Shown here piece by piece: positions 4,899-61,798 of a stretch of 64,000 nt of DNA. The translations under genes and the position numbers were made by a program. The notes beneath the pieces are model-generated. The model was not told the DNA's origin and did not search any database. It saw only the letters and a list, made by a program, of their open reading frames with translations. The stretch is from Candidatus Scatocola faecipullorum. GTDB lineage: Bacteria; Pseudomonadota; Alphaproteobacteria; RF32; CAG-239. Location of the stretch: NCBI GenBank assembly GCA_018714685.1, contig DVNC01000021.1, positions 76,758 through 140,757 on the forward strand, read 5' to 3'. The first letter of the stretch is position 1. Every line of letters begins with the position of its first letter.

Positions 4899-5477
4899 AT
4901 GAAAAAAATAAAAACCCTGGTTTTTACATTCTTATTGCTGTTTTTTTCAGCCAATCTGGTTCAGGCCATGAGTTTGGATGAAATTTACCGTGACGTTGTG
5001 CGTTCGGACAACCGCGGTTATCTGCCGATGTTTGTTAAAAACAGAACTGCGCCGGATTTTTTGGACGAGGAGGTTGTGCTGAAAGACGTTCCGGAACCTA
5101 AGCCGGAAGATACCAGTCCGGTTAATCCGGATTTGGAAATTGTAAAACTGGAAAACCAGAGGAAAATCCACGAGGCCAAACTTCGTGCGGAGCTGGCAGA
5201 ATGGCAGGCGGTGCTGGACAATGTCCGTGCCGGGAAAGTGACGCCGGTGGAGCTGCGGGCTTTGGAGCTCAAAGCGGAGCAGAGCGATCCGCAGGCGGTT
5301 GAAATTCTGGGCTGGATTTATGCCCGCGGGGTAGGGGTAAAGCCGGATTTAATCAAATCGTTCAAATTTTATCAGAAGGCAGCGGATATCGGGGTTCCCG
5401 ACGCATCGCTCAATGCAGCGAAAGTTTATAAAATTATGCCGCGCCGTCTGCGTGAGCAGTTAATTTCCTATCAGTAG
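4899..5477 (+). CDS. Secreted Sel1-like repeat protein
   Basis: Signal peptide MKKIKTLVFTFLLLFFSANLVQA. The C-terminus AVEILGWIYARGVGVKPDLIKSFKFYQKAADIGVPDA fits the Sel1/SLR repeat pattern. Confidence 0.7.
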   Translation: MKKIKTLVFTFLLLFFSANLVQAMSLDEIYRDVVRSDNRGYLPMFVKNRTAPDFLDEEVVLKDVPEPKPEDTSPVNPDLEIVKLENQRKIHEAKLRAELAEWQAVLDNVRAGKVTPVELRALELKAEQSDPQAVEILGWIYARGVGVKPDLIKSFKFYQKAADIGVPDASLNAAKVYKIMPRRLREQLISYQ

Positions 5478-5535
5478 TTTTTAACCGATTGATTAGTTGT
5501 CGTTAGCCTGAGAAATGAGGCTTGTTTATGGTTTG

Positions 5536-5564
5536 TTGACAAATAAGCGCTGATATGATATTCT
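5536..5564 (+). promoter_or_regulatory. Candidate sigma70-type promoter for the Cys-rich protein gene
   Basis: TTGACA-N17-TATTCT, about 40 nt upstream of the 5604 start. Confidence 0.35.
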
Positions 5565-5603
5565 GACAATGGCTTTGGTTCAGTTATATCTATGAGGTGT
5601 ATT

Positions 5604-7763
5604 ATGAAAAACATTAGTTCATACTTGTGCGCCCTGTTTCTGGCTGGCTTTTTTGCGGCTGAAGCAGAGGCTTTGACGTATTCTGATTCTCCTTCATGGT
5701 ACACCGGTCTCATAGGCAAAAGTCAAAACCAAATTCTTGAACCAAAGCCCTTGGGCGACATTTCCCGACTGCTCAAGCTGGCGAAAGTTCATTTTATTGT
5801 TGACAGCAACGACAAGCTCGGTTTTGACAATATTGAACAGAGTTTTGACCATGACAATATTAACCGCTGTAAGGCCCTGGGCTTTAACAAGACCGGCGCC
5901 TGCGGCTCAAATCAAAGGGTGTCGCGCTACTGCCCTTATGACAATTCATATTATGACCAGTGCTGCGACATGAACTTTGCCTATTCCAAAGGCGAATGCT
6001 CTTATCCCAACACCATCAGCGGAAACTCCTGCGGCGGGAAATTCAAATGCTATTGCGACAGAAGCCTGTATCCTTATACCGCCACTTCTTGCCCTTCGCC
6101 GAAAATTCATAATGAAGACAAATGTGCCGAGGTAACTTATTCGGCAGGTAAAGCCGCGACCAATATTTATTATTCCGATTGTCTTTGTCCGTCTTCCTGG
6201 ATTACCTGCGACAGTTCAATCCATCAGAAAGGAAACGGGCAGAAATGTGAATATAACGGCGTTACCACTTATGCTTCATGCAGCTGTGAGCCCGGGTACA
6301 GTCTGCTTTGTGAGGAGTTCGGGCCGAAGTCGCCGATGGATTATTGTTTCCTGAAAGGAACGAAATATTACAAAACCTGCAAGACGGAAAAAGACGTTTG
6401 CGACAGTCTGGGATACAAATATTCCAAAGACAGTCCGTGTGATGCGGACTCGGTGATTGCAAGTTACTGTCCGCGGGGAAGCGGCAACACATATTTCTCA
6501 TGCAAAATCGATCCGGACAAATATTGCAAAAACCGTGGTTTTACAACATCTGCCTGCGGTGAATTTCAAACAGTCAGTTCCGAGAAATGCAATGTGCCGG
6601 GGTTTGGGGTACAGGGACAGTATCGCAAATGCAGCCATACCTGCAAGAGCCGTTTAGCGGCGGCTTATCCCAATTACAATTTTGACGGAGTGCGTTCGTC
6701 TAACGGCGGAACGATGGTCTATACCAAAAATGTGGTTGATAATAATCTGAGCGCTTCCAGCAACAGTTATTTCAAATCGGCCTATTCATTCCGAAACAAT
6801 TATTCGGAATGTGCCAATGTCGGCAAGCCGACGGTAACGGTTAATACCTCCGGCAGTACGGTAACTATTCTCTCCGGTATTAATTTGAGCGATGTAAACG
6901 TAAAACTGAATTTGAGCAACGGTTCGAGATATAACGTTAAATTGGACCGCCCGACAACATTTAACAATGCGACGGTTTCAACCAGCCAAACCGCCAAGAT
7001 GACGGTTTACAAAACAACGCTGTATGTTGAAGGGGGAACGAATCTTACGGGAATTAACCAGTTGGATGTTGAAGGCGAACAAAATGACGGAACGTCGGCG
7101 AATTCGTATATTTATGTGAGAGGGGCGGCTTCTTTGGGCAATGTTTATCTGTTCGGGCGTTCCCGCCTTTATGTGAGCGATACCAGCGGTTCGTCTTCGG
7201 CCAGAAATGTTTATATCGGCTGGCGGTATAACAACAGCAACGGCAATCGCGAAGATCACGGCCGGGCGCTGTTTGAACTGGCGGCCAATTCCAAATTTAA
7301 AGTAACCGGAACTGTTGAAATCGAAACCCGATGGGGCGATGCGCCTTTGTCGGGCAGCGGCGGTCCGGCTTTGTATATGCGTGATAAGTCGCAGCTTTAT
7401 GCCGATTATATAAAGAGTTATAATGCAGAGCATTTTATCGGTTATTATGCCATTGTCTGTGCGCGTAACTATTGGCTGCAAAATAAAAATGACCGTGGCT
7501 ATACCAAGATTAAATTCGGGCGGTATGCCAAACTTTTGACCAGAGACGGTTCCGGCTATTTCCGGGCATCATCGGGGGCAACATCCGGTAATTGTTATGC
7601 TTCCGGCTGTAATAATGTTCAGGAGATTATCAGTAAGTTTAAGTCATCGGATGTTGAATTGTCTGGTGCGGGGCATCATGACAAGTGGGCGATGTCTGTA
7701 CAATGGAGCCGTCCGGATACGACGGGCGCTTATAATACCTATTGCGGCAAGTGGTATTACTGA
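5604..7763 (+). CDS. Large secreted cysteine-rich repeat protein with beta-helix-like C-terminal half (no assignable family)
   Basis: GAGGTG precedes the ATG at 5604. Signal peptide MKNISSYLCALFLAGFFAAEAEA. About 29 Cys fall between residues ~90-350 in recurring Y-x-x-C-x-C modules. The Asn/Ser/Thr/Gly-rich C-terminal half looks like an adhesin passenger. Confidence 0.8.
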   Translation: MKNISSYLCALFLAGFFAAEAEALTYSDSPSWYTGLIGKSQNQILEPKPLGDISRLLKLAKVHFIVDSNDKLGFDNIEQSFDHDNINRCKALGFNKTGACGSNQRVSRYCPYDNSYYDQCCDMNFAYSKGECSYPNTISGNSCGGKFKCYCDRSLYPYTATSCPSPKIHNEDKCAEVTYSAGKAATNIYYSDCLCPSSWITCDSSIHQKGNGQKCEYNGVTTYASCSCEPGYSLLCEEFGPKSPMDYCFLKGTKYYKTCKTEKDVCDSLGYKYSKDSPCDADSVIASYCPRGSGNTYFSCKIDPDKYCKNRGFTTSACGEFQTVSSEKCNVPGFGVQGQYRKCSHTCKSRLAAAYPNYNFDGVRSSNGGTMVYTKNVVDNNLSASSNSYFKSAYSFRNNYSECANVGKPTVTVNTSGSTVTILSGINLSDVNVKLNLSNGSRYNVKLDRPTTFNNATVSTSQTAKMTVYKTTLYVEGGTNLTGINQLDVEGEQNDGTSANSYIYVRGAASLGNVYLFGRSRLYVSDTSGSSSARNVYIGWRYNNSNGNREDHGRALFELAANSKFKVTGTVEIETRWGDAPLSGSGGPALYMRDKSQLYADYIKSYNAEHFIGYYAIVCARNYWLQNKNDRGYTKIKFGRYAKLLTRDGSGYFRASSGATSGNCYASGCNNVQEIISKFKSSDVELSGAGHHDKWAMSVQWSRPDTTGAYNTYCGKWYY

Positions 7764-7765
7764 CA

Positions 7766-7800
7766 AAGAAAAGCCGTCTCGGGTGAGGCGGCTTTTTGTT
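7766..7800. terminator. Bidirectional terminator between convergent genes
   Basis: Hairpin agccgtctc-gggt-gaggcggct flanked by an A-rich run on the left and a T-rich run on the right. Confidence 0.5.
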
Positions 7801-8298
7801 TTATTTTTTGATATTGAACAGGTGCTGAAAAGCCAGCCAATGTGTGTAGTTGATTTTTGTTTTGGCAGAAAAAATGTCCTGTATGTTCAGCCAGGCGGCA
7901 TTGCCGTTTTCCGGCGTGCGCCAGGGCGAGACGGAAGTGTCAAAACCATAGGAAGAAGCATCATAGACAATAAAAGTCTGATCATAAACGCAGTATTCTC
8001 CGAAAGGGCGGGCATCCTCGGCAAAATAATTGACAATCTGCTGGTAAGATTTTTCGCCCCAGTCAAGTTCAAACTCAATGCCGGTTTCTTCATACAGCTT
8101 GCGGTAAAGGCAGCCGCGGAAGTCTTCCCGGCGTGAAACCGTACCGCCCGGAAATTCGGGAACGGATACCTGCGGCGGATAAGTAACCAGAACTTTTTCG
8201 TCTTTTACCAGAATGGCAAAATAGCCTTTCTGGTGCAGGGGGATAATTTCATCGGCATATTTTTCATGACCGCGACGGTCATAAAAGATGTCACTCAT
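7801..8298 (-). CDS. Nudix hydrolase
   Basis: Nudix box GGTVSRREDFRGCLYRKLYEETGI (GX5EX7REUXEEXGU). The gene overlaps the gmk stop by 8 nt. Confidence 0.8.
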   Translation of the reverse strand: MSDIFYDRRGHEKYADEIIPLHQKGYFAILVKDEKVLVTYPPQVSVPEFPGGTVSRREDFRGCLYRKLYEETGIEFELDWGEKSYQQIVNYFAEDARPFGEYCVYDQTFIVYDASSYGFDTSVSPWRTPENGNAAWLNIQDIFSAKTKINYTHWLAFQHLFNIKK

Positions 8299-8968
8299 TC
8301 GCTTCGGCTTCCTTAATCAATTCGTTGACAAACTTCTTCAGTCCGGTTTGACGGACGCGTTTCATTCGTTCGCCGGAAATAATTTTCTGCACTTTGATAA
8401 TGGTTTCTTCAAGATTTACGTTGACGATGACATAGTCAAATTCGTCCCAATGGGTGATTTTATCGAGAATCATGTTCATTCGTTTATCGATGATTTCTTT
8501 GCTGTCGGTGCCGCGGTTTTCAAGCCGGCGGCGGAGTTCTTTGATGGAGGGCGGCAGCAGGTAAATGGTGACGACGTCATCTTTGGCTTTTTCTTTCATT
8601 TGGCGCGCGCCGGCCCAGTCCATGTCGAACAGCACGTCTTCACCGACGTTGATGAAACTGTCAACTTCAGAGCGCAGCGTTCCGTAACGGGAACCGTATT
8701 GGGAATCGACATATTCGTAAAAAGCGTCCTGAGCCAGAAATTCGTCATATTGTTTGTCGGTGATGAAATAGTAGTCAACGCCGTCAACTTCGCCTTCGCG
8801 GGGTTGGCGGGTGGTTACCGAAACCGAGAACTTGATGTTGGGGTCGCGGCGCAGAATTTCTTTGACAACAGCGCTTTTTCCGGTGCCGGAAGGGGCCTCG
8901 ATGATAAACATGGCGCCGCGGCGGACTTTTTTCAGACGGTCGATGATTTCTTCCATAATGTGCTCCAT
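8291..8968 (-). CDS. gmk: Guanylate kinase
   Basis: P-loop RRGAMFIIEAPSGTGKS and the TTRQPREGEVDGVDYYF motif. Confidence 0.9.
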   Translation of the reverse strand: MEHIMEEIIDRLKKVRRGAMFIIEAPSGTGKSAVVKEILRRDPNIKFSVSVTTRQPREGEVDGVDYYFITDKQYDEFLAQDAFYEYVDSQYGSRYGTLRSEVDSFINVGEDVLFDMDWAGARQMKEKAKDDVVTIYLLPPSIKELRRRLENRGTDSKEIIDKRMNMILDKITHWDEFDYVIVNVNLEETIIKVQKIISGERMKRVRQTGLKKFVNELIKEAEANE

Positions 8969-9041
8969 TTAGCTGATGACTTTTATTTTTAATGCCTATA
9001 ATATATCCGTTAATTGTTAAAAAGTCTTTAGGAAAATAGCC

Positions 9042-9809
9042 ATGATCAGGAACAAAAACGTTTTAATTACCGGAGCCAGTTCAGGCATCGGCGAAGCTTT
9101 GGCCGTGTATTATGCCCAAAACGGCGCGGCCAATTTGTTTATCTGCGGGCGCAATGCGGAACGTCTGGCCAAAGTGCGCGAGGCATGCGAACGGTATGGG
9201 GCAAAGGTTTCTGCCGAAGTGCTGGACGTGACGCAGCGCGAGGCGGTTAAAAACTGGGTGGAGCGTTGCAATGTATCGGCGAATTTGAACATTGTGATTG
9301 CCAATGCCGGGACCGGGACAATCAATGAAACCGAAGAGGCGGTGCTGAACACTTTTAATACCAATGTCAACGGCGTGATTAATACGGTGCTTCCGGCGCT
9401 GGCGGCATACCGGAGCCGTCCGTCCCGTTATCACGGAGACATGGCGGTGGCGGTTATCAGCTCAATGGCCGGTTATCACGGTTTGCCGACCTGTCCGGCA
9501 TACAGTGCCAGCAAAGCCTGTGTGAAAGCCTGGGGCGAAGCGCTGCGTCCGGTTTTAAAACGTGAGGGAATCCGGATGAGCGTTGTTTGCCCGGGGTTTG
9601 TGCGGTCACGAATTACGGATCAGAACACCTGTCCGATGCCTTTTTTTATGGAGGCACCGCAGGCGGCGGAGATTATTGCCAGAGGTATTGAAGCCGATAA
9701 GGGGATTATTGCTTTTCCGTGGCCGTTGCGGCTGGCGGTGTGGCTGGCGTCGATTGTGCCGAACTGTCTGAGCGATTTGATATACGGCCGTCTGCCGCCG
9801 AAGGCATAG
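9042..9809 (+). CDS. Short-chain dehydrogenase/reductase (SDR)
   Basis: TGASSGIGEA cofactor motif, NAG, and YSASK catalytic motif. 255 aa. Confidence 0.85.
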   Translation: MIRNKNVLITGASSGIGEALAVYYAQNGAANLFICGRNAERLAKVREACERYGAKVSAEVLDVTQREAVKNWVERCNVSANLNIVIANAGTGTINETEEAVLNTFNTNVNGVINTVLPALAAYRSRPSRYHGDMAVAVISSMAGYHGLPTCPAYSASKACVKAWGEALRPVLKREGIRMSVVCPGFVRSRITDQNTCPMPFFMEAPQAAEIIARGIEADKGIIAFPWPLRLAVWLASIVPNCLSDLIYGRLPPKA

Positions 9810-11088
9810 TTTTGCCCCGGGGATATTTGCGGCGTTCCAGACGCATGAGAATCCAGAGCAGGGCAAGACCGGGTATCATCATCAGGGTCGTTATCAAGAA
9901 AAAGGCCGGCCAGGAGATAATTTCTTTCATATAGCCGCTGCTGGCGGCAAAAACGTCGCGGGCCAGGCTCATTAATGACGAAAGCAGCGCATACTGGGTA
10001 GCGGTATAAGCGACATTGCAAAGCGAAGACAGATAGGCAACCAGTGCGGTGGAGGCCATGCCGCCGGCGATGTTGTCAAATGAGAGAGTCAGCATCAGCA
10101 TGGGAACGCTGTGGCCGACATAAGCCTGAACGACATACATCAAATTGGATATTCCCTGCAAAATGCCGCAAAGCATCAGCCCCTTAAGCATATTCATCCG
10201 GCTCATGACCAGTCCGCCGACCAGCCCGCCGAAAATGGTGGCTCCCATGCCGAAGATTTTGGAAACAAAAGCAATTTCGCCTTTGCTGAATCCCATATCG
10301 TGATAGAAGGGAAAAGCCATCGGGGCCATATAGGAATCGCTCATGCGATAGAAAAAAATAAATGCCAGTATTAATGCCCAGTCGTTTCTTTTCATAAAGT
10401 CAACGAAAGGATCGTAAACGGCTTTATTCATAAAGTCGTTGAAATTTTTGTAAGACTGTTCGCTGAATTTTTCGGCTTTGGAGGGCTCGCGGGAGAGCAG
10501 AATGGTGAGAATGCCGACAAGCGTGCCGAGCGCCATCAGCAGGTAAACTTGGTTCCAGCTCATGAAAGAGGCCATCCAGATGGCACCGGCACCGGAAGCA
10601 ATGGTGCCGATGCGGTAGCCGATGATATAGACAGCGACGCCGGCCCCTTGTTCTTTGAGGGAAAAACTTTCGATACGGTAGGCGTCGAGAACAACGTCCT
10701 GTGAAGCGGAGGCAATAACGACAATGACGCAGAGCACAGCCAGCAGGCGAAGATTGGCTGCGGGGTCAACGGTGGAAATGAGAGCGATGCCCGCCATCAA
10801 AAGCAGCTGGAAAAAAAGAGCCCAGCCCCGGCGGCGTCCGAGCAGACCGAATCCGGGGAGTTTCAGCCGGTCGAGCAGCGGCGCCCACAGCCATTTGAAA
10901 CTGTAAGGAAGTTTGACGAGAGAAAAAAGCCCGATGGCAATATAGGAAATGCCTTCATCTTTCAGCCAGAGATTAAGCGTGCTGAAAACCAATAAAAGCG
11001 GAAAGCCGCTGGAAAAGCCCAGTCCGACCATGATGAGCATGCGGGGATTGAAGTAAACCCGCAGCGCTTTTATCCATTTCATAAGCAT
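9706..11088 (-). CDS. ampG: AmpG-family muropeptide MFS permease
   Basis: N-terminus LGFSSGFPLLLVFSTLNLWLKDEGISYIAIGLFSLVKLPYSFKWLWAPLLDR is characteristic of AmpG. About 12 predicted TM segments. Confidence 0.85.
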   Translation of the reverse strand: MLMKWIKALRVYFNPRMLIMVGLGFSSGFPLLLVFSTLNLWLKDEGISYIAIGLFSLVKLPYSFKWLWAPLLDRLKLPGFGLLGRRRGWALFFQLLLMAGIALISTVDPAANLRLLAVLCVIVVIASASQDVVLDAYRIESFSLKEQGAGVAVYIIGYRIGTIASGAGAIWMASFMSWNQVYLLMALGTLVGILTILLSREPSKAEKFSEQSYKNFNDFMNKAVYDPFVDFMKRNDWALILAFIFFYRMSDSYMAPMAFPFYHDMGFSKGEIAFVSKIFGMGATIFGGLVGGLVMSRMNMLKGLMLCGILQGISNLMYVVQAYVGHSVPMLMLTLSFDNIAGGMASTALVAYLSSLCNVAYTATQYALLSSLMSLARDVFAASSGYMKEIISWPAFFLITTLMMIPGLALLWILMRLERRKYPRGKTMPSAADGRISNRSDSSAQSTPATPPAATATEKQ

Positions 11089-11317: not shown

Positions 11318-13603
11318 ATGGCGGATATTCAAATAGTTAAAAGAGACGGCCGGCGGCAGTCGTATGATAATAAAAAAGTGGCGGCCGTGGTTGCCCGAGC
11401 CGCGGCCGGGTTTGAGCTGGATGTTTCTCCTCTGCTGGACGCGGTGAACAATTATGTCAAGGAGGGTATCGGCAGCCAGGAAGTGATGAATTTTCTGATT
11501 TTGACGGCGTTGAATTTGACCAGTGTGGAAAATCCGGATTGGAAAAACGTTGCGGGGCGATTGAAACTGTTTGATCTGTATAAGAAGACGGCTTTGGCAA
11601 GGAACTGCAATCATTGTTATGACCGTCTGTACGATTATCCGGTCTTTTTGCAGCAGATGTGGGCGGATGGTTGTTATGACCGGGAATGGCAGGCGAAATA
11701 TTCGGCGGAAGAACTGGCCGAAGCCGGAACCTTTATTAAACCGGCGTATGATTTGGTGTATGATTATGCCGGCATCAATTTGCTGATTAAGCGTTATTTG
11801 TGCGAATACAACGACCGGATTGCCGAGCTGCCGCAGGAAATGTTTCTGACGATTGCCCTGCTGATTGAGCAAAATGAAAAGCCGGAAAATCGCATGGCGC
11901 AGGTAAAAGATACCTATGAAAAACTGGCTAACCGGAAAATTTCGCTGGCAACGCCGCTGCTGATGAATCTGCGGCGGCCGCACGGCAATTTGAGTTCCTG
12001 TTTCATTACGGTTATGGATGACAACCGGGAATCGATTTTTTATGTGATTGATCAGATTTCCGCCATTTCAAAGTTTGGCGGCGGTGTCGGTGTCAACATT
12101 TCCCGGGTGCGCTGCAAAGGGGCGCGCATTAAGGGGATTAAAAATTCCTCCGGCGGCGTGATTCCCTGGATCAGAATTATCAACGACACGGCGGTAGCGG
12201 TCAATCAGCAAGGAAAACGCAAAGGGGCCGTAACCGTTTCGCTTGATATGTGGCATATGGATATTGAAGATTTTCTTCAGCTGCGGACGGAAAACGGCGA
12301 CCAGCGAATGAAAGCCTATGATATCTTTCCGCAGGTGGTGGTGCCGGATTTGTTTATGAAGAAAGTGGAAGCCGATGAAGACTGGCTGGTGGTTGACCCC
12401 TCGGAAGTGCGGACAAAATATCAGGTTGAATTGGGCGATTTGTGGGGGGAAGAATTTAACCGGGTCTATGAGCAGCTTTATTTGGATGCGCAGTTCGGCA
12501 AGCTGGAGATGTTTAAGTTTATTTCGGCGAAGGAGCTGCTGAAAAAAGTGATGCGCTCGCAGATTGAAACAGGTATGCCTTATATCGCTTTCAAGGATAC
12601 GCTGAACAAGTATAATCCGAACAAGCATGACGGCGTGATTGTCGGTACAAACCTGTGTACGGAATCGCACAGCAACGTCAAGCCGACACGGTTTGATGCG
12701 GAGCGAATCGAAAACGGCAAGATTATCCGCGAAATGAGCGGCGGTTTGGTTCATGTCTGCAATCTGGTGTCTATCAATCTGGCCAATGTTGACAGCGATG
12801 AAGAACTGGAAAGCATTTGCCGGACTTCGGTGCGGATTTTGGATAATGCGATTGATTTTACCGAAGTGCCGATTTTGGAAGGGCGGCAGCATAATCTGCG
12901 CTATCGCACCATCGGGGTCGGGGCGATGGGGCTGGCCGACCATTTGGCCAAGAACAATATTCCTTATATCAATTCGGCCGATTATGTTGATGAGCTGTTT
13001 GAAAAAATGGCAATTTACAATATTCGTGCCAGTATTGCGGCCGCACGAGAAAAAGGAACGTTTGAGGCTTATGAGGGTTCTGACTGGCAAAAAGGGATTA
13101 TTATGGGCAAACGCCAATTATGGTTTAATGCCAATTCCAAACATAAAGAGGCCTGGAACGACATTTTCAGAGACTTGCAGAAATACGGCATTCGCAATTC
13201 GCAAATCAGTGCGATTGCTCCGAATACAAGTTCGTCGCTGATTCAAGGGTGCAGCGCCTCGGTGCTGCCGGTTTACAGCAAGTTTTTTGTGGAGACGCAC
13301 GGCAAAGGAAGCATTCCCAACTGTCCGCCTTTTATCAAGGACAAATTCTGGTTTTATCAGGAAAACCGCAATATTAACCAGAAGGTGGTGATTGAGGTGA
13401 TGTCGCGGATTAACAAGTGGATTGACACCGGCATTTCAATTGAGCTGATGTATAATCTTAACCGCAATATCCGGGCGCGGGATATTTATGAAACGATTAT
13501 GGATGCCTGGAAAAAAGATATTAAAACCCTTTATTATACGCGGACGATTCAGAAAGACGGTTCGGCTTCCGAAAAAAGCGAATGTGTCAGCTGCGCCGGT
13601 TAA
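11318..13603 (+). CDS. nrdA: Ribonucleoside-diphosphate reductase alpha subunit (class I)
   Basis: ATP-cone N-terminus VKRDGRRQSYDNKKV, active-site block GTNLCTES, C-terminal CxxC tail ECVSCAG. 761 aa. Confidence 0.95.
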   Translation: MADIQIVKRDGRRQSYDNKKVAAVVARAAAGFELDVSPLLDAVNNYVKEGIGSQEVMNFLILTALNLTSVENPDWKNVAGRLKLFDLYKKTALARNCNHCYDRLYDYPVFLQQMWADGCYDREWQAKYSAEELAEAGTFIKPAYDLVYDYAGINLLIKRYLCEYNDRIAELPQEMFLTIALLIEQNEKPENRMAQVKDTYEKLANRKISLATPLLMNLRRPHGNLSSCFITVMDDNRESIFYVIDQISAISKFGGGVGVNISRVRCKGARIKGIKNSSGGVIPWIRIINDTAVAVNQQGKRKGAVTVSLDMWHMDIEDFLQLRTENGDQRMKAYDIFPQVVVPDLFMKKVEADEDWLVVDPSEVRTKYQVELGDLWGEEFNRVYEQLYLDAQFGKLEMFKFISAKELLKKVMRSQIETGMPYIAFKDTLNKYNPNKHDGVIVGTNLCTESHSNVKPTRFDAERIENGKIIREMSGGLVHVCNLVSINLANVDSDEELESICRTSVRILDNAIDFTEVPILEGRQHNLRYRTIGVGAMGLADHLAKNNIPYINSADYVDELFEKMAIYNIRASIAAAREKGTFEAYEGSDWQKGIIMGKRQLWFNANSKHKEAWNDIFRDLQKYGIRNSQISAIAPNTSSSLIQGCSASVLPVYSKFFVETHGKGSIPNCPPFIKDKFWFYQENRNINQKVVIEVMSRINKWIDTGISIELMYNLNRNIRARDIYETIMDAWKKDIKTLYYTRTIQKDGSASEKSECVSCAG

Positions 13604-13624: not shown

Positions 13625-14659
13625 ATGCAAAGAAAGAAACTTTTTAACGTCAGCGGAAACGATGATATTACCAACCGGCGGATGGTCGGCGGCAATGTAA
13701 CCAATCTGTTTAATCTGAACAATGTCAAATATCAGTGGGCCAACAAGCTGTATCGCCTGATGATGGAAAACTTTTGGATTCCGGAGAAGGTTTCGCTGTT
13801 TGACGACAAGCGGGCTTATGACGAATTGACGCCGGCCGAACAAAAAGCTTATGACGGCATATTGTCTTTTTTGGTTTTTCTTGACAGTATTCAGACCAAT
13901 AATCTGCCGAATATCAGCGATTATATTACCGCTCCGGAGGTTAATCTGATTCTGGCCATTCAGACTTATCAGGAAGCAGTACACTCGCAGAGTTATGCTT
14001 ATATCATCGAAAGCATTATTCCGGCGGCAAAACGGGAGGAAATTTATAACAAATGGCGCGAAGACAAGGTTCTGCTGGAACGCAACAAATATATCGCCGA
14101 GATTTATCAGGATTTTATCGATAACCGTAATGACAAAAATTTTGCCCGGGTGCTGGTGGCCAATTTTCTGTTGGAGGGTCTGTATTTTTATAACGGATTT
14201 AATTTCTTTTATAATCTGGCTGCCCGTTCGCTGATGATCGGAACGGCCGACGAAATTAAATATATTAACCGCGACGAGCTGACCCACTGCGTGATTTTTG
14301 CCAATATTATCAAAGAAATCCGCCAGGAAAGGCATGATTTTTTCAATGATGACGAGATTTATGAAATGTTTGCCAAAGCAACCGAGCAGGAAATCAACTG
14401 GAGCAATCATATTATCGGCAATCGGGTGATGGGCATTACGCCGGAAACGATTGAGCAATATACCAAATTTATGGCTAACAAACGTCTGAAAGAAATCGGA
14501 ATGCAACCGTTGTTTGAGGGATTTGACAGCAATCCGTACAAGCAGCTGGAAAATATTGCCGACACGAACGGAGCCGGCAGCGTGAAAGGCAATTTCTTTG
14601 AGGCCAATGTTTCTTCCTATAACCAGAGTACGGCGATTGAGGGTTGGGAGGAAATCTGA
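13625..14659 (+). CDS. nrdB: Ribonucleoside-diphosphate reductase beta subunit
   Basis: Di-iron/tyrosyl motif QEAVHSQSYAYII and a second EGLYF...E..H block. Starts 21 nt after nrdA. Confidence 0.95.
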   Translation: MQRKKLFNVSGNDDITNRRMVGGNVTNLFNLNNVKYQWANKLYRLMMENFWIPEKVSLFDDKRAYDELTPAEQKAYDGILSFLVFLDSIQTNNLPNISDYITAPEVNLILAIQTYQEAVHSQSYAYIIESIIPAAKREEIYNKWREDKVLLERNKYIAEIYQDFIDNRNDKNFARVLVANFLLEGLYFYNGFNFFYNLAARSLMIGTADEIKYINRDELTHCVIFANIIKEIRQERHDFFNDDEIYEMFAKATEQEINWSNHIIGNRVMGITPETIEQYTKFMANKRLKEIGMQPLFEGFDSNPYKQLENIADTNGAGSVKGNFFEANVSSYNQSTAIEGWEEI

Positions 14660-26064: not shown

Positions 26065-27069
26065 ATGGATGTATTGAAAGATTTTGAACTGCGTCAGGTC
26101 GGAAGCAGACTGGTTTTGAGACAGATATGCCCGCCTGATTTTGAGATGAGAACGATTATTGCTGCCGATAAGATTGTGGAGCAAAAGGAAGATTTTTTCG
26201 TGCTCGGCTACAATGAAAAATTTTTCTGTTTATGCCGCTATGATAAGCAAAACAGATGCCTTTGTTCAAAAATAGGCTGTGACGATTATGTCCGGCTCGG
26301 TAAGAAAATTCTGTTTTTGCAGAATATGATGTGGCAGCTGTGGGATGAAGATTTTCAGCTCCATTTTCTGGGCGAATCCGTCGATCAGAAAAAAACGGTA
26401 TTTGTCCGTAAACTTTTCGAAGGCAAAACATGGAACGGGCTTTATTTGCTCAGCTATTTTGAGGGAAACCGGCTCTGTCAAGTCAGGTGCAGCGATTATC
26501 AGAAGACTGAAGGGAAAAGCATTCCCTGTCTGCAAGCTGATATTGCCAAGCTTAAAATAGAAGGTGTTTGGTGTTTTCTCAATATCTTTTCGCGAGGAAA
26601 ATGGTGCCATTGTCCGGGGATGAAAGCTCCGGAATACGGCGTTGAGCGAAAGGTCGTTCTGAGTGAGAAGCCGATGGCTTCTTGGGCGGACTATCATCAT
26701 TTTGTGGAGACATTTCAAAGCAGCAAGTCCGGTTTTGGCTGGATTGCGGATTTTGAAGAAAAATTTGCTAATGCTCTGTGGGAGGGCAAGGATCCTTTCT
26801 TTGATGTGGTCTTACTGCCGTTATTCGGCAGTTGCGGTGAAAGTTTCGGCGTTAAGGTTATTGCCCGGACGCGCAGAATTTTTGAAGGAGAAACACAAGG
26901 TATTTATCAGGTGCTGGCTAAGGACGTGTTTTATAAGCAGGATGCCGATGAGGTTGAAATGGGGCAGTTTGATGGGAAAGACTGTCTTTATGTCCGCTAT
27001 GGCAACAAAGTGCATAAAGTTGTTTGTCAACCGACGGTGATAGGGGCTAAATTGCAGTTAATCGAATGA
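26065..27069 (+). CDS. Hypothetical protein (Cys/Trp/Phe-rich orphan)
   Basis: The long ORF has no recognisable motif, TM segment or signal peptide. The start is uncertain (MDVLKDFEL at 26065, or further upstream at 25966). A strong terminator follows. Confidence 0.5.
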   Translation: MDVLKDFELRQVGSRLVLRQICPPDFEMRTIIAADKIVEQKEDFFVLGYNEKFFCLCRYDKQNRCLCSKIGCDDYVRLGKKILFLQNMMWQLWDEDFQLHFLGESVDQKKTVFVRKLFEGKTWNGLYLLSYFEGNRLCQVRCSDYQKTEGKSIPCLQADIAKLKIEGVWCFLNIFSRGKWCHCPGMKAPEYGVERKVVLSEKPMASWADYHHFVETFQSSKSGFGWIADFEEKFANALWEGKDPFFDVVLLPLFGSCGESFGVKVIARTRRIFEGETQGIYQVLAKDVFYKQDADEVEMGQFDGKDCLYVRYGNKVHKVVCQPTVIGAKLQLIE

Positions 27070-60322: not shown

Positions 60323-60351
60323 AGAAGAGCCCTTCGGGGTTCTTTTTTCTT
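60323..60351. terminator. Bidirectional terminator with a UUCG loop
   Basis: agaagagccc-ttcg-gggttctttt followed by ttctt, between convergent genes. Confidence 0.6.
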
Positions 60352-61798
60352 ATTCTCTGTTGCAGAGTTGGGTGAATTCGGCTTTTTTGTGATCGAGCAT
60401 GGTTCGGTTTTCGCCGGTGAGCGGCGCCGGTTTGCGGGCAATGCAATATTGCGGCAACAGTTTTTTTATGTTTTCAATATTCAGCTCCGGAACTGTTTTT
60501 TGTTCTTCTTTTTCGTTGCGACAATATTGGATTTTGCATTTGTTAAAATCTATGCGGATTTTTTTGCCTTGTCCGGCGGAAACTTTGGCGGTGATTTCGC
60601 CGCTGTCGGCGTCTTCAAATTCGTCAAAAGTTATTCGCAGATTATCCAGTGTTCCGGGAAGGAGAAATTCAATGAATTCGCCTTTGTCAATGTAGTTGCG
60701 GATTTCAAAAATTGCTTGGTTGCCCTGCCATTCAACAATTGAACCGGCAAACAGCCAATCGCCCAATGTGCGGGTGTATTCATAGTTTTGGCTGATGTTG
60801 GTCAGTTTTCCGTCGTGAAAGCCGAGGCAATAACCGCGGTTCTGCAAGGTGTAGAGGTCATCCATATAGTGGCGGAAATCCCAATGTCGGGGATCGCTGT
60901 AATAATCGTCGATTGCCTGGCGGTAAGTGCGGGCGACAACAGCCGCATAGTATTCGGTTTTATTGCGGCCTTCGACTTTGAGCGAATCCATGCCGAGGTT
61001 CAGCAAATCAGGCAGGCGCGGCAGCAGGCACATATCTTTGGAGTTAAGCATATAGCCGCCGTGTTCGTCTTCGACGACTTCGTACAGTTCGCCGGGGCGG
61101 AATTCTTCTTCCAGCAGAAATTCAAAGGCGTCTTTGTTCTGGTCGTTGATTTCGATTTCTTTAACAGAGCCGTCTTTCAGGCGGAGATGAAGCTTATAAT
61201 GCCAGCGGCAGCAGTGGGCGCATTTGCCCTGGTTGGCGCTGCGGTCGGCAAGATAATTGGAAATCAGACAGCGGCCGGAGTAAGACATGCACATGGCGCC
61301 ATGCATAAAACATTCGAGCAGAATGTCAGGACATTGCCGGCGGATTTCCTGCATCTCCTCAAAGGTGACTTCCCGTCCGAGCACACAGAGTTTGGCTCCC
61401 TGCTGTTGCCAGAACTTGACGGCCAGAGAGGAGCAGATGTTGGCCTGAGTGGAAACGAAAAGGTTTAATTCCGGGGCGTGTTCTTTAACATACATGAAAA
61501 CGCCGGGGTCGGCAATGAGAACGCCGTCCGGCTGCAAATGACGCAGGGTTTCGACAAATTGCGGCAGCTTGGCGACGTCACGGTTATGCATAAACAGGTT
61601 TAAGGTCAGGTAGATTTTTTTGCCGTTTTGGTGAACAAACCTGATGCCTTCTTCCAAGTCTTCCAACGTCATTTTGGACTGGGCGCGGAGGCACATGTCC
61701 GGTGTTCCGGCGTAAACGGCATCGGCGCCGTAAAGAATTGCGGTTTTGAGTTTGACCAGTGAACCGGCCGGAAGCAGAAGTTCCGCTTTATCTAACAT
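60350..61798 (-). CDS. Peptidase U32-family protein (RNA/quinone hydroxylation-type)
   Basis: ELLLPAGSLVKLKTAILYGADAVY N-terminus and the Cys cluster HGAMCMSYSGRCLISNY...GKCAHCCRW typical of U32 proteins. 482 aa. Confidence 0.85.
   Translation of the reverse strand: MLDKAELLLPAGSLVKLKTAILYGADAVYAGTPDMCLRAQSKMTLEDLEEGIRFVHQNGKKIYLTLNLFMHNRDVAKLPQFVETLRHLQPDGVLIADPGVFMYVKEHAPELNLFVSTQANICSSLAVKFWQQQGAKLCVLGREVTFEEMQEIRRQCPDILLECFMHGAMCMSYSGRCLISNYLADRSANQGKCAHCCRWHYKLHLRLKDGSVKEIEINDQNKDAFEFLLEEEFRPGELYEVVEDEHGGYMLNSKDMCLLPRLPDLLNLGMDSLKVEGRNKTEYYAAVVARTYRQAIDDYYSDPRHWDFRHYMDDLYTLQNRGYCLGFHDGKLTNISQNYEYTRTLGDWLFAGSIVEWQGNQAIFEIRNYIDKGEFIEFLLPGTLDNLRITFDEFEDADSGEITAKVSAGQGKKIRIDFNKCKIQYCRNEKEEQKTVPELNIENIKKLLPQYCIARKPAPLTGENRTMLDHKKAEFTQLCNRE

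Follow-up and report, generated by a model that had tools for sequence, protein, structure and literature searches.

A cysteine-rich, predicted secreted protein of gut Alphaproteobacteria and its mosaic multigene family

What kind of protein packs nearly all of its cysteines (Cys) into one half of the chain and short beta-strands into the other, and what might an uncultured gut bacterium do with it? The question is raised by a 64,000-nucleotide stretch of Candidatus Scatocola faecipullorum (assembly GCA_018714685.1, contig DVNC01000021.1, positions 76,758 to 140,757 of the forward strand; the whole stretch is hereafter called the window). An uninterrupted open reading frame (ORF) runs from 5604 to 7763 (+; 719 codons plus stop by direct translation), and features described below lie on this strand unless marked otherwise. 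An original prediction, made from the letters and their translation, placed a secreted, eukaryote-like protein here, with modules resembling epidermal growth factor (EGF) fused to a beta-helix-like region and a possible role at the cell surface or in host interaction. The ORF is present as predicted, and each of the peptides quoted at the time was found in its translation. By sequence comparison the protein belongs to no described family and is a member of a recombining multigene family of gut Alphaproteobacteria. Its features point to a secreted modular adhesin-like or variable surface protein, built of undescribed disulfide-rich modules.

The family and the architecture of the protein

Searches with the full-length protein gave no Pfam match even at E ≤10 and none in NCBIfam, PHROGs or PADLOC, and nothing relevant was recovered from PDB sequences searched with the single protein or with profiles A1 and A3. 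A strong match to an already characterised family would have refuted the original prediction; none was found in these collections, and the literature yielded nothing specific on the family or on the biology of the lineage. The close relatives form 30 clusters among 5.8 × 10^9 protein clusters, all from metagenome-assembled genomes (MAGs) or metagenomes and either unnamed or annotated “hypothetical protein [Alphaproteobacteria bacterium]”; the sole match in 185,579 reference genomes was the gut MAG “Azospirillum sp. 51_20”. The 90% cluster that holds the window protein (P0001) has 488 near-identical members from many independent human-gut studies, some on contigs of up to 1.9 Mb. Four sequences in this cluster (P0212, P0213, P0214 and P0218) are 475-aa versions that start at M245 (MDYCFLKG...), inside the Cys-rich region, and are probably gene-calling or contig-end truncations, not real isoforms. 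A profile search of 1.84 × 10^9 representatives added 169 remote relatives, all from prokaryotic metagenomes or MAGs. Carriers of the family are nearly all human-gut metagenome contigs or alphaproteobacterial MAGs, with several paralogs on one contig or in one MAG; some paralogs lie as convergent pairs or close together (L016, 6599-8740 [+] and 8778-10841 [-]; L008, 8001-9974 and 12969-14483). The window protein has the features by which the family is recognised, namely a signal peptide, the QNQ and K-V-H-F motifs, a founding domain with eight Cys and a Cys ladder ending C-x3-C-K-S-R, and its gene has the conserved promoter and 33-nt leader.

The chain opens with the Sec-type signal peptide that had been predicted (aa 1-23, 5604-5672; MKN, a hydrophobic core and AEA|L, without a lipobox), for which cleavage would fall after AEA and before L. 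There are 35 Cys in total, C9 in the signal peptide and 34 (an even number) in the mature chain. Exactly 29 lie within residues 89-347, where the original prediction had placed about 29 at residues ~90-350, giving a Cys content of 11.2% against an average of 1.4% in the window's ORFs of ≥150 aa. In a 30-sequence family alignment, virtually all sequences that extend over the position in question retain these 29 Cys and C403; C9 is not conserved. Such near-total invariance is far from chance and is a signature of structural disulfides; disulfide formation in the window protein is likely on this pattern of conservation.

Between the signal peptide and the first Cys lies an N-terminal extension (aa 24-85, 5673-5858) that is predicted to be disordered (predicted local distance difference test [pLDDT] <35) and carries two conserved motifs, S-x-Y-x2-L-x4-QNQ-x2-E-x-KP and KLAKVHFIVD...GFD..EQ.FDHDN. 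Despite the low pLDDT, residues K58, A60, V62, H63, F64, F74 and F81 of the extension are invariant. It leads into the founding 8-Cys domain (aa 86-152, 5859-6059; C-x3-G-F..C..CP.D..Y..CC..Y.Y...C.YP.....C.G.FKCYC), where the Cys-rich region begins (aa 86-350, 5859-6653), its 29 invariant Cys arranged in three 4-Cys modules and several C-x-C beta-hairpin modules. The AlphaFold2 (AF2) model of this region (pLDDT 70-90) consists of short hairpins, with short helices at 85-91, 262-268 and 304-310. The 4-Cys module (as a regular expression, C-x3-G-[FY]-x4-8-C-x8-11-C-x8-14-C, containing C-[PN]...[YF]-x2-C) occurs in three copies, at aa 86-121, 262-301 and 304-348 (profile-profile comparison, E of 4 × 10^−8 and 4 × 10^−7). 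The C-x-C hairpin modules are weakly alike by the same method (E about 1 × 10^−3), and self-BLAST of the protein showed no internal repeat, the repeats being visible only by profile-profile comparison. The recurring modules of the original prediction are thus borne out for the 4-Cys unit but less so for the C-x-C modules. “CysRRep” repeats (preprint 10.64898/2026.06.07.730663) were considered and found to be unrelated, with a different spacing (Cx6-9Cx5-7Cx8-11Cx7-8CC).

Parts of this region also occur on their own or in other settings. The most widespread unit of the family comprises residues about 57-150, and the founding domain with its preceding strand motif also exists as free-standing secreted proteins of ~115 aa (45 representatives of <140 aa among 142 newly retrieved relatives), in which a V-x-F-[IL] strand stands directly at the mature N-terminus. 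Large relatives bear many C-x-C-P-x2-[WY]-x2-C...G-x-G-x2-C...Y-x-S-C repeats, and small Lcl_C/DUF1566 proteins encoded by the same bacteria also contain the 4-Cys module, with the short helix at its start.

Beyond the Cys-rich region, a junction subdomain (aa 351-435, 6654-6908) with invariant C403 and P409 is followed by the variable head of type A (aa 436-719, 6909-7760), which is all-beta, beta-solenoid-like and contains Cys 619, 664, 669 and 714. The C-terminal half was predicted to be rich in Asn, Ser, Thr and Gly with short beta-strands; its composition and the AF2 model agree, the model being almost wholly beta-strand with strands every 7-11 residues. Confidence in the head was high in the full-length model (pLDDT 85-95) and for the domain alone (predicted template modelling score 0.83), with low pLDDT around aa 649-707 in the head-alone model; the C-terminus was modelled as a solenoid end plus a short helix. 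When the head model was searched against PDB with Foldseek, 50 of the top 50 matches were beta-helix or solenoid proteins (EspP, HpmA, pectin lyase, GH87, the serine-rich repeat protein SRRP, tailspikes and tapirin among them), none of them significant (best values: E 0.63, probability ≤0.15, template modelling [TM] score ≤0.36). Matches to FHA and HpmA map to the C-terminal head at E ≥0.8, and nothing reached E ≤0.001 with the full model against PDB and BFVD or with the head against PDB. The claim of a beta-helix-like, passenger-like half therefore survives as an architectural class but not as a relationship to any significant structural relative; in the model, the C-terminal half looks like a beta-solenoid.

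The family has at least four head types with little or no similarity beyond the junction (A, with D sharing the junction only; B; C; and E). Types A to E are all 350-390 aa long, and Lcl_C heads are a further kind. The window's junction is related to the equivalent region of types D and E (hhalign, 96-98% probability) and more weakly to that of types B and C, and beyond the junction hhalign detected similarity only between A and C, which was weak (88% probability). Across the 1.84 × 10^9 representatives, the type-A head was found only in P0002, P0003, P0007 and P0008 and in the fragments P0032 and P0067. When 4-5 representatives with other heads were searched against Pfam, NCBIfam, PHROGs and PADLOC, the only result was weak Lcl_C in P0026 and P0136, both below threshold (28.4 and 28.0 bits). 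In P0026, P0136 and L008_504 a weak Lcl_C (PF07603) match or a W-[YFW]-[LIV]-P-[ST] motif, which we take to be a hallmark of Lcl_C/DUF1566, stands atop the same Cys-rich N-terminal region; the motif is present in 14 of the 172 retrieved proteins (P0001-P0172), and Lcl_C is absent from the window protein (Pfam, E ≤10). Members with a type-C head are flanked by small secreted proteins of 168-283 aa (L014, 10077-10925; L009, 10455-10961) that start C-x-S-L-G-Y...C...C-P...C, two of three ending in a DUF1566-like region. It is also worth noting that the otherwise largely unrelated head types A and B both end in an aromatic tail, C-G-x-[WY]-Y (YCGKWYY at aa 713-719 of the window protein, RCGYYGG in P0010 and NCGWYYK in P0017). 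Of 30 family members, 26 have a Cys close to the C-terminus, and the tail might provide a capping disulfide or act as a sorting signal.

Mosaicism, the shared 5′ cassette and the genomic setting

Over its N-terminal region the window protein shares 89-95% identity with type-B paralogs, compared with 75-85% with its same-head orthologs P0002 and P0003, and this closer relationship to paralogs than to orthologs indicates concerted evolution of the stalk within the species. P0015 is 100% identical to the window protein over aa 24-163 and then continues into a type-C head. At the DNA level, tracts of homology end recurrently, in independent contigs (L014, L015, L024, L061, L099 and L100), at three positions: 5522, just upstream of the promoter; 6079, at codon 159 just past the founding 8-Cys domain; and 6653, at codon 350, which is the end of the Cys-rich region. 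On L024 a 6-kb match to the window's left flank (99.2% identity) is joined to the 3′ part of a type-C gene, on L061 the neighbouring Sel1-like gene and the N-terminal region are joined to a type-B head, and L100 carries the reciprocal arrangement, behind flagellar genes. These reciprocal combinations of flank and head suggest rearrangement between paralogous loci, or assembly chimeras.

Variation between alleles is concentrated in the distal head. Across 12 full-length alleles of the 90% cluster, 29% of sites are polymorphic in a hypervariable segment at aa 571-705 (7314-7718), compared with 3% in the Cys-rich region. Relative to allele 2 (L134), synonymous divergence (dS) reaches 0.90 inside the segment, against 0.025 elsewhere in the gene, and the segment has a ratio of nonsynonymous to synonymous divergence (dN/dS) of 0.20, so that aa 571-705 is best explained as an imported divergent segment, not as hypermutation in place. 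Purifying selection acts on the gene taken as a whole (dN/dS ~0.2 against the second allele). A diversity-generating retroelement was rejected, as no stretch of the gene occurs a second time in the window and in view of the same dS and dN/dS values. No invertible promoter or phase-variation switch was seen, the upstream region having the same orientation in all contigs.

Upstream of the ORF, a promoter-like site at 5536-5564 (TTGACA-17 nt-TATTCT, with TG before the -10 hexamer) has a -35/-10 layout that is conserved upstream of paralogs at other loci. It is followed by a conserved 33-nt 5′ leader (5571-5603), GGCTTTGGTTCAGTTATATCTATGAGGTGTATT, which includes an invariant, Shine-Dalgarno-like GAGGTG at 5594-5599. 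The start ATG at 5604 directly follows the leader and sits 4 nt 3′ of GAGGTG; an in-frame ATG at 5592, within the leader, reads ACG upstream of a paralogous gene and is not conserved as a start. Five nucleotides past the stop codon there is an intrinsic terminator-like hairpin (7768-7807; 13-bp stem with 6 G-C pairs, then a T-run). The promoter-like site and the terminator frame the gene, which is read as a monocistronic unit.

The leader is ~80% identical or better between paralogs that share 30-40% protein identity, and both the promoter spacer and the signal-peptide codons diverge more than it does. A degenerate leader pattern was found in at least 117 metagenome stretches, nearly all from the human gut, and among the matches listed it directly precedes family ORFs in 106 of 117; the window has one copy. 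The whole cassette of promoter and leader (5536-5606) stands ahead of nearly every family gene and recurs in L006, L008, L009, L012, L014, L016 and L017-L133, serving two genes on L016 and, on L008, two family genes plus a small Cys-module/Lcl_C gene at 6908-7711. No RNA structure was predicted for the leader (z = 0.28), and it has no Rfam match. Conservation on this scale suggests that the cassette co-regulates the family.

The surroundings of the gene are of a housekeeping kind (LptF/G, prephenate dehydrogenase, a pyridoxal phosphate-dependent PALP-family enzyme, NUDIX, guanylate kinase and class I ribonucleotide reductase). Directly upstream, the secreted Sel1-repeat neighbour of the original prediction was recovered as a 192-aa protein without Cys (4899-5477), with a signal-peptide-like N-terminus and a Sel1 match just below threshold (28.7 bits against a cut-off of 30.7); its gene has a terminator-like hairpin of its own at 5505-5522. 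The Sel1-like gene is kept beside the ortholog P0003 in a related species (L012) and is absent beside paralogs at other loci, so that a functional link to the Cys-rich protein is at most putative. Phage origin was also considered and rejected: PHROGs gave no match, viral contigs yielded no relatives, and none of the genes nearby is a phage gene. Elsewhere in the window, a further Cys-rich orphan at 26065-27069 (+) encodes 334 aa, of which 15 are Cys (4.5%); it lacks a signal peptide, matches nothing in Pfam and is apparently cytoplasmic. A short-chain dehydrogenase gene at 9042-9809 (+) and a gene for an AmpG-like transporter of the major facilitator superfamily at 9706-11088 (-) converge and overlap by ~104 nt, an overlap that is also called in all related contigs (L002, L003 and L012). 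The large and small subunits of class I ribonucleotide reductase, whose chemistry is oxygen-dependent, are encoded at 11318-13603 and 13625-14659 (+), and a peptidase U32 family protein at 60350-61798 (-); together these genes hint that the organism meets oxygen, for example near the mucosa.

Candidate roles of the protein

We favor an adhesin-like protein at the surface or outside the cell, consisting of a disulfide-stapled stalk and a variable binding head, and give this reading a probability of about 0.5. Both the location and the binding function are drawn from sequence and model features. Under this reading the Sec signal peptide would deliver the protein into the periplasm, where its 34 Cys could form ~17 disulfides, 15 in the N-terminal rod and the junction and two in the head. 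The modules of aa 86-350, hairpins and helix-hairpins, would make an elongated, protease-resistant stalk, on which the ~370-aa beta-solenoid-like head (aa 351-719) would be the ligand-binding part. The disordered extension, with its QNQ motif and KVHF strand, and the first 8-Cys domain may be the family's common handle, serving export across the outer membrane or retention on it. Homologous recombination at module borders would swap heads among paralogs and alleles, yielding a strain-specific repertoire of binding or antigenic specificities, and the shared promoter and 5′ untranslated region (UTR) would place the family under common control. Export, disulfide stabilisation, paralogs, head swapping and allele-level hypervariability are hallmarks of outward-facing proteins. 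The surface or host-interaction idea of the original prediction is, in our view, better motivated by the mosaic, hypervariable heads and by the paralogs with Lcl_C.

Several observations weigh against such an adhesin. The protein has no anchor, lipobox, beta-barrel, two-partner secretion (TPS) domain or known sorting signal, so that a periplasmic stay is possible. The original prediction had already reported no autotransporter barrel or anchor motif, and Pfam is silent even at E ≤10, including for the barrel (PF03797) at the C-terminus and for the TPS domain (PF05860); the neighbouring genes are Sel1-like and NUDIX genes, not TpsB. Fifteen putative disulfides in an N-terminal half are unexpected for substrates of type V secretion, and no Dsb genes were recognisable in the 64-kb window. 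With no significant structural or sequence match, the terms “beta-solenoid” and “binding head” are derived from architecture. On L015, L024 and L100 the mosaics may have arisen during assembly, as chimeras joined across the 558-bp 5′ segment held in common; the joins in question nonetheless recur in independent samples. Lastly, aa 571-705 is under purifying selection (dN/dS 0.2), which taken alone is no sign of immune-driven diversification.

The lack of a recognisable export route lends some weight to a periplasmic or envelope-structural protein, Sec-exported and Dsb-oxidised but never passing the outer membrane (for example a spacer, a scaffold or a sensor partner). The Sec signal peptide is the one targeting feature that can be recognised, nothing in the protein suggests translocation across or anchoring in the outer membrane, and family genes lie among housekeeping and envelope genes (LptF/G, BamE, OmpA-like, MltA, AsmA and flagellar). 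However, many paralogs with interchangeable heads and a hypervariable distal head are typical of exposed proteins and atypical of envelope machinery, and some paralogs carry Lcl_C, a domain that in Legionella Lcl is part of an extracellular adhesin head (PMC11162425); we consider a purely periplasmic role rather unlikely. The same Foldseek lists that suggest a solenoid also contain pectin lyases, GH87, polygalacturonase, PL6 alginate lyases and phage capsule depolymerases, and glycan foraging is common in the gut, so the head might be that of a secreted carbohydrate-active enzyme (a polysaccharide lyase, hydrolase or depolymerase) with Cys modules that stabilise it or bind carbohydrate. These matches are not significant (E ≥0.6, TM ≤0.36) and are mixed with non-enzymatic adhesins, no enzyme was matched in Pfam or NCBIfam even at E ≤10, and an active site would hardly tolerate heads that are largely unrelated between paralogs and replaced distally between alleles, which makes an enzyme distinctly improbable. 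A constant N-terminus, variable C-termini and recombination at the junction between them would also fit a polymorphic toxin or competition effector, in which the N-terminal region serves delivery and the C-terminus is a recombining toxin. That explanation we regard as very improbable, as the heads are 350-390 aa long and beta-solenoid-like, unlike compact toxin domains, and PADLOC, Pfam and toxin-domain searches gave no match; features of type VI secretion, contact-dependent inhibition or Rhs systems are absent, and the downstream NUDIX gene is convergent and lies behind a strong terminator, leaving no candidate for an immunity gene.

The eukaryote-like character stressed in the original prediction would be accounted for by an EGF-repeat protein of eukaryotic descent, acquired by horizontal transfer and mimicking host EGF or Notch-type ligands. 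One module does resemble EGF in its Cys spacing (aa 193-236, 6180-6311; C-x-C-x6-C-x12-C-x10-C-x-C-EPGY-x3-C) and contains C-x-C-x2-G-Y. When the modules were scanned singly against Pfam, only this one drew EGF-clan matches; the top matches of the fragment aa 188-237 are weak members of that clan, each far below its cut-off: cEGF (E = 0.086; 13.1 bits, cut-off 26.6), EGF_2 (8.8-9.6 bits, cut-off 22.1) and EGF_Teneurin (9.5-9.7 bits, cut-off 24.3), the last two at E >1. The EGF arrays Pvs25 and DLL1 appear in the Foldseek list of the full model, at E ~1-3 and probability ≤0.06. Two PROSITE-type EGF patterns, C-x-C-x(2)-[GP]-[FYW]-x(4,8)-C and C-x-C-x(5)-G-x(2)-C, do not match the window protein; relaxing x(4,8) to x(3) gives one match, CSCEPGYSLLC at aa 226. 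The near-EGF module noted originally (C-S-C-E-P-G-Y-x3-C) thus exists under the relaxed pattern but fails the unrelaxed ones, and the plural “EGF-like modules” does not hold, since a single, sub-threshold module resembles EGF and the unit that is repeated has four Cys and is shared with bacterial DUF1566 proteins. When PDB sequences were searched with a profile, no EGF protein came up. Nor did the label “eukaryote-like” stand: the composition of the gene is native (GC 46.6%, with 51% at third codon positions, against 47.3% GC for the window), all relatives, including 169 of 169 remote ones, come from prokaryotic metagenomes or MAGs, no eukaryotic sister sequence has so far turned up, and Cys density by itself is no evidence of eukaryotic origin. 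Eukaryotic descent is accordingly hard to credit.

Beyond the adhesin reading, the data also allow a broader proposal, which we put forward as speculative and on balance unlikely: that the family is an undescribed system of antigenic or adhesive variation in uncultured human-gut Alphaproteobacteria, with a docking handle, swappable heads and a shared leader regulator. In such a system, the handle (K-V-H-F extension plus founding domain) might dock to a surface partner by strand complementation, or be a new export signal. Disulfide-knotted rods would present interchangeable heads recombined at module borders, and the 33-nt 5′UTR would put the repertoire, small Lcl_C proteins included, under one post-transcriptional regulator. 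The family is abundant, gut-specific and in no domain database, and it comes from a group of uncultured gut Alphaproteobacteria whose dealings with the host are little explored. Were the adhesin reading true, it would define new disulfide-rich bacterial domains, supply candidate adhesins or antigens for a neglected gut lineage and make the conserved leader a handle for finding the full repertoire in metagenomes.

Comparison with known systems

Helicobacter Hcp proteins consist of alpha-helical Sel1 repeats with one disulfide per repeat. They resemble the window protein in being secreted, Cys-rich and from a host-associated proteobacterium, and the window gene adjoins a Sel1-like gene; the window protein itself, however, does not match Sel1, and its Sel1-like neighbour lacks Cys. 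EGF arrays such as Pvs25 and the Notch ligands are likewise made of small tandem disulfide modules, and one window module, with six Cys, has EGF-like spacing. The repeated unit of the window protein differs in having four Cys preceded by a short helix, in being bacterial and in giving no significant match to such arrays. The likeness to beta-helix adhesins (pertactin, EspP, Ag43, FHA/HpmA, Lactobacillus reuteri SRRP and Candida Awp) is architectural only, as the window protein has neither an autotransporter barrel nor a TPS domain.

Mycoplasma has multigene families of variable surface proteins (Vlp, Vsp, Vsa and similar) whose genes share a conserved 5′ cassette. As in those families, the promoter, 5′UTR and N-terminal region are near-identical among the genes described here, the distal parts differ, and recombination between paralogs appears to produce chimeras. 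In contrast to the Mycoplasma proteins, members of this family are not lipoproteins, and neither a homopolymer tract nor an invertible promoter was seen.

The nearest parallel is offered by Lcl of Legionella pneumophila, which is exported by the type II system and stays attached to the surface through its N-terminus, and whose C-terminal domain, which has no disulfides, binds glycosaminoglycans (PMC11162425). Lcl and the window protein both combine a signal peptide and a short conserved N-terminal region with a long repetitive stalk and a C-terminal head, and weak Lcl_C matches or the associated motif are present in the family paralogs named above. The stalk of Lcl is made of collagen triplets; in the window protein disulfide-rich modules take their place, and the head of the window protein is not Lcl_C. 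Among known proteins, Legionella Lcl would be the closest functional analogue of the window protein.

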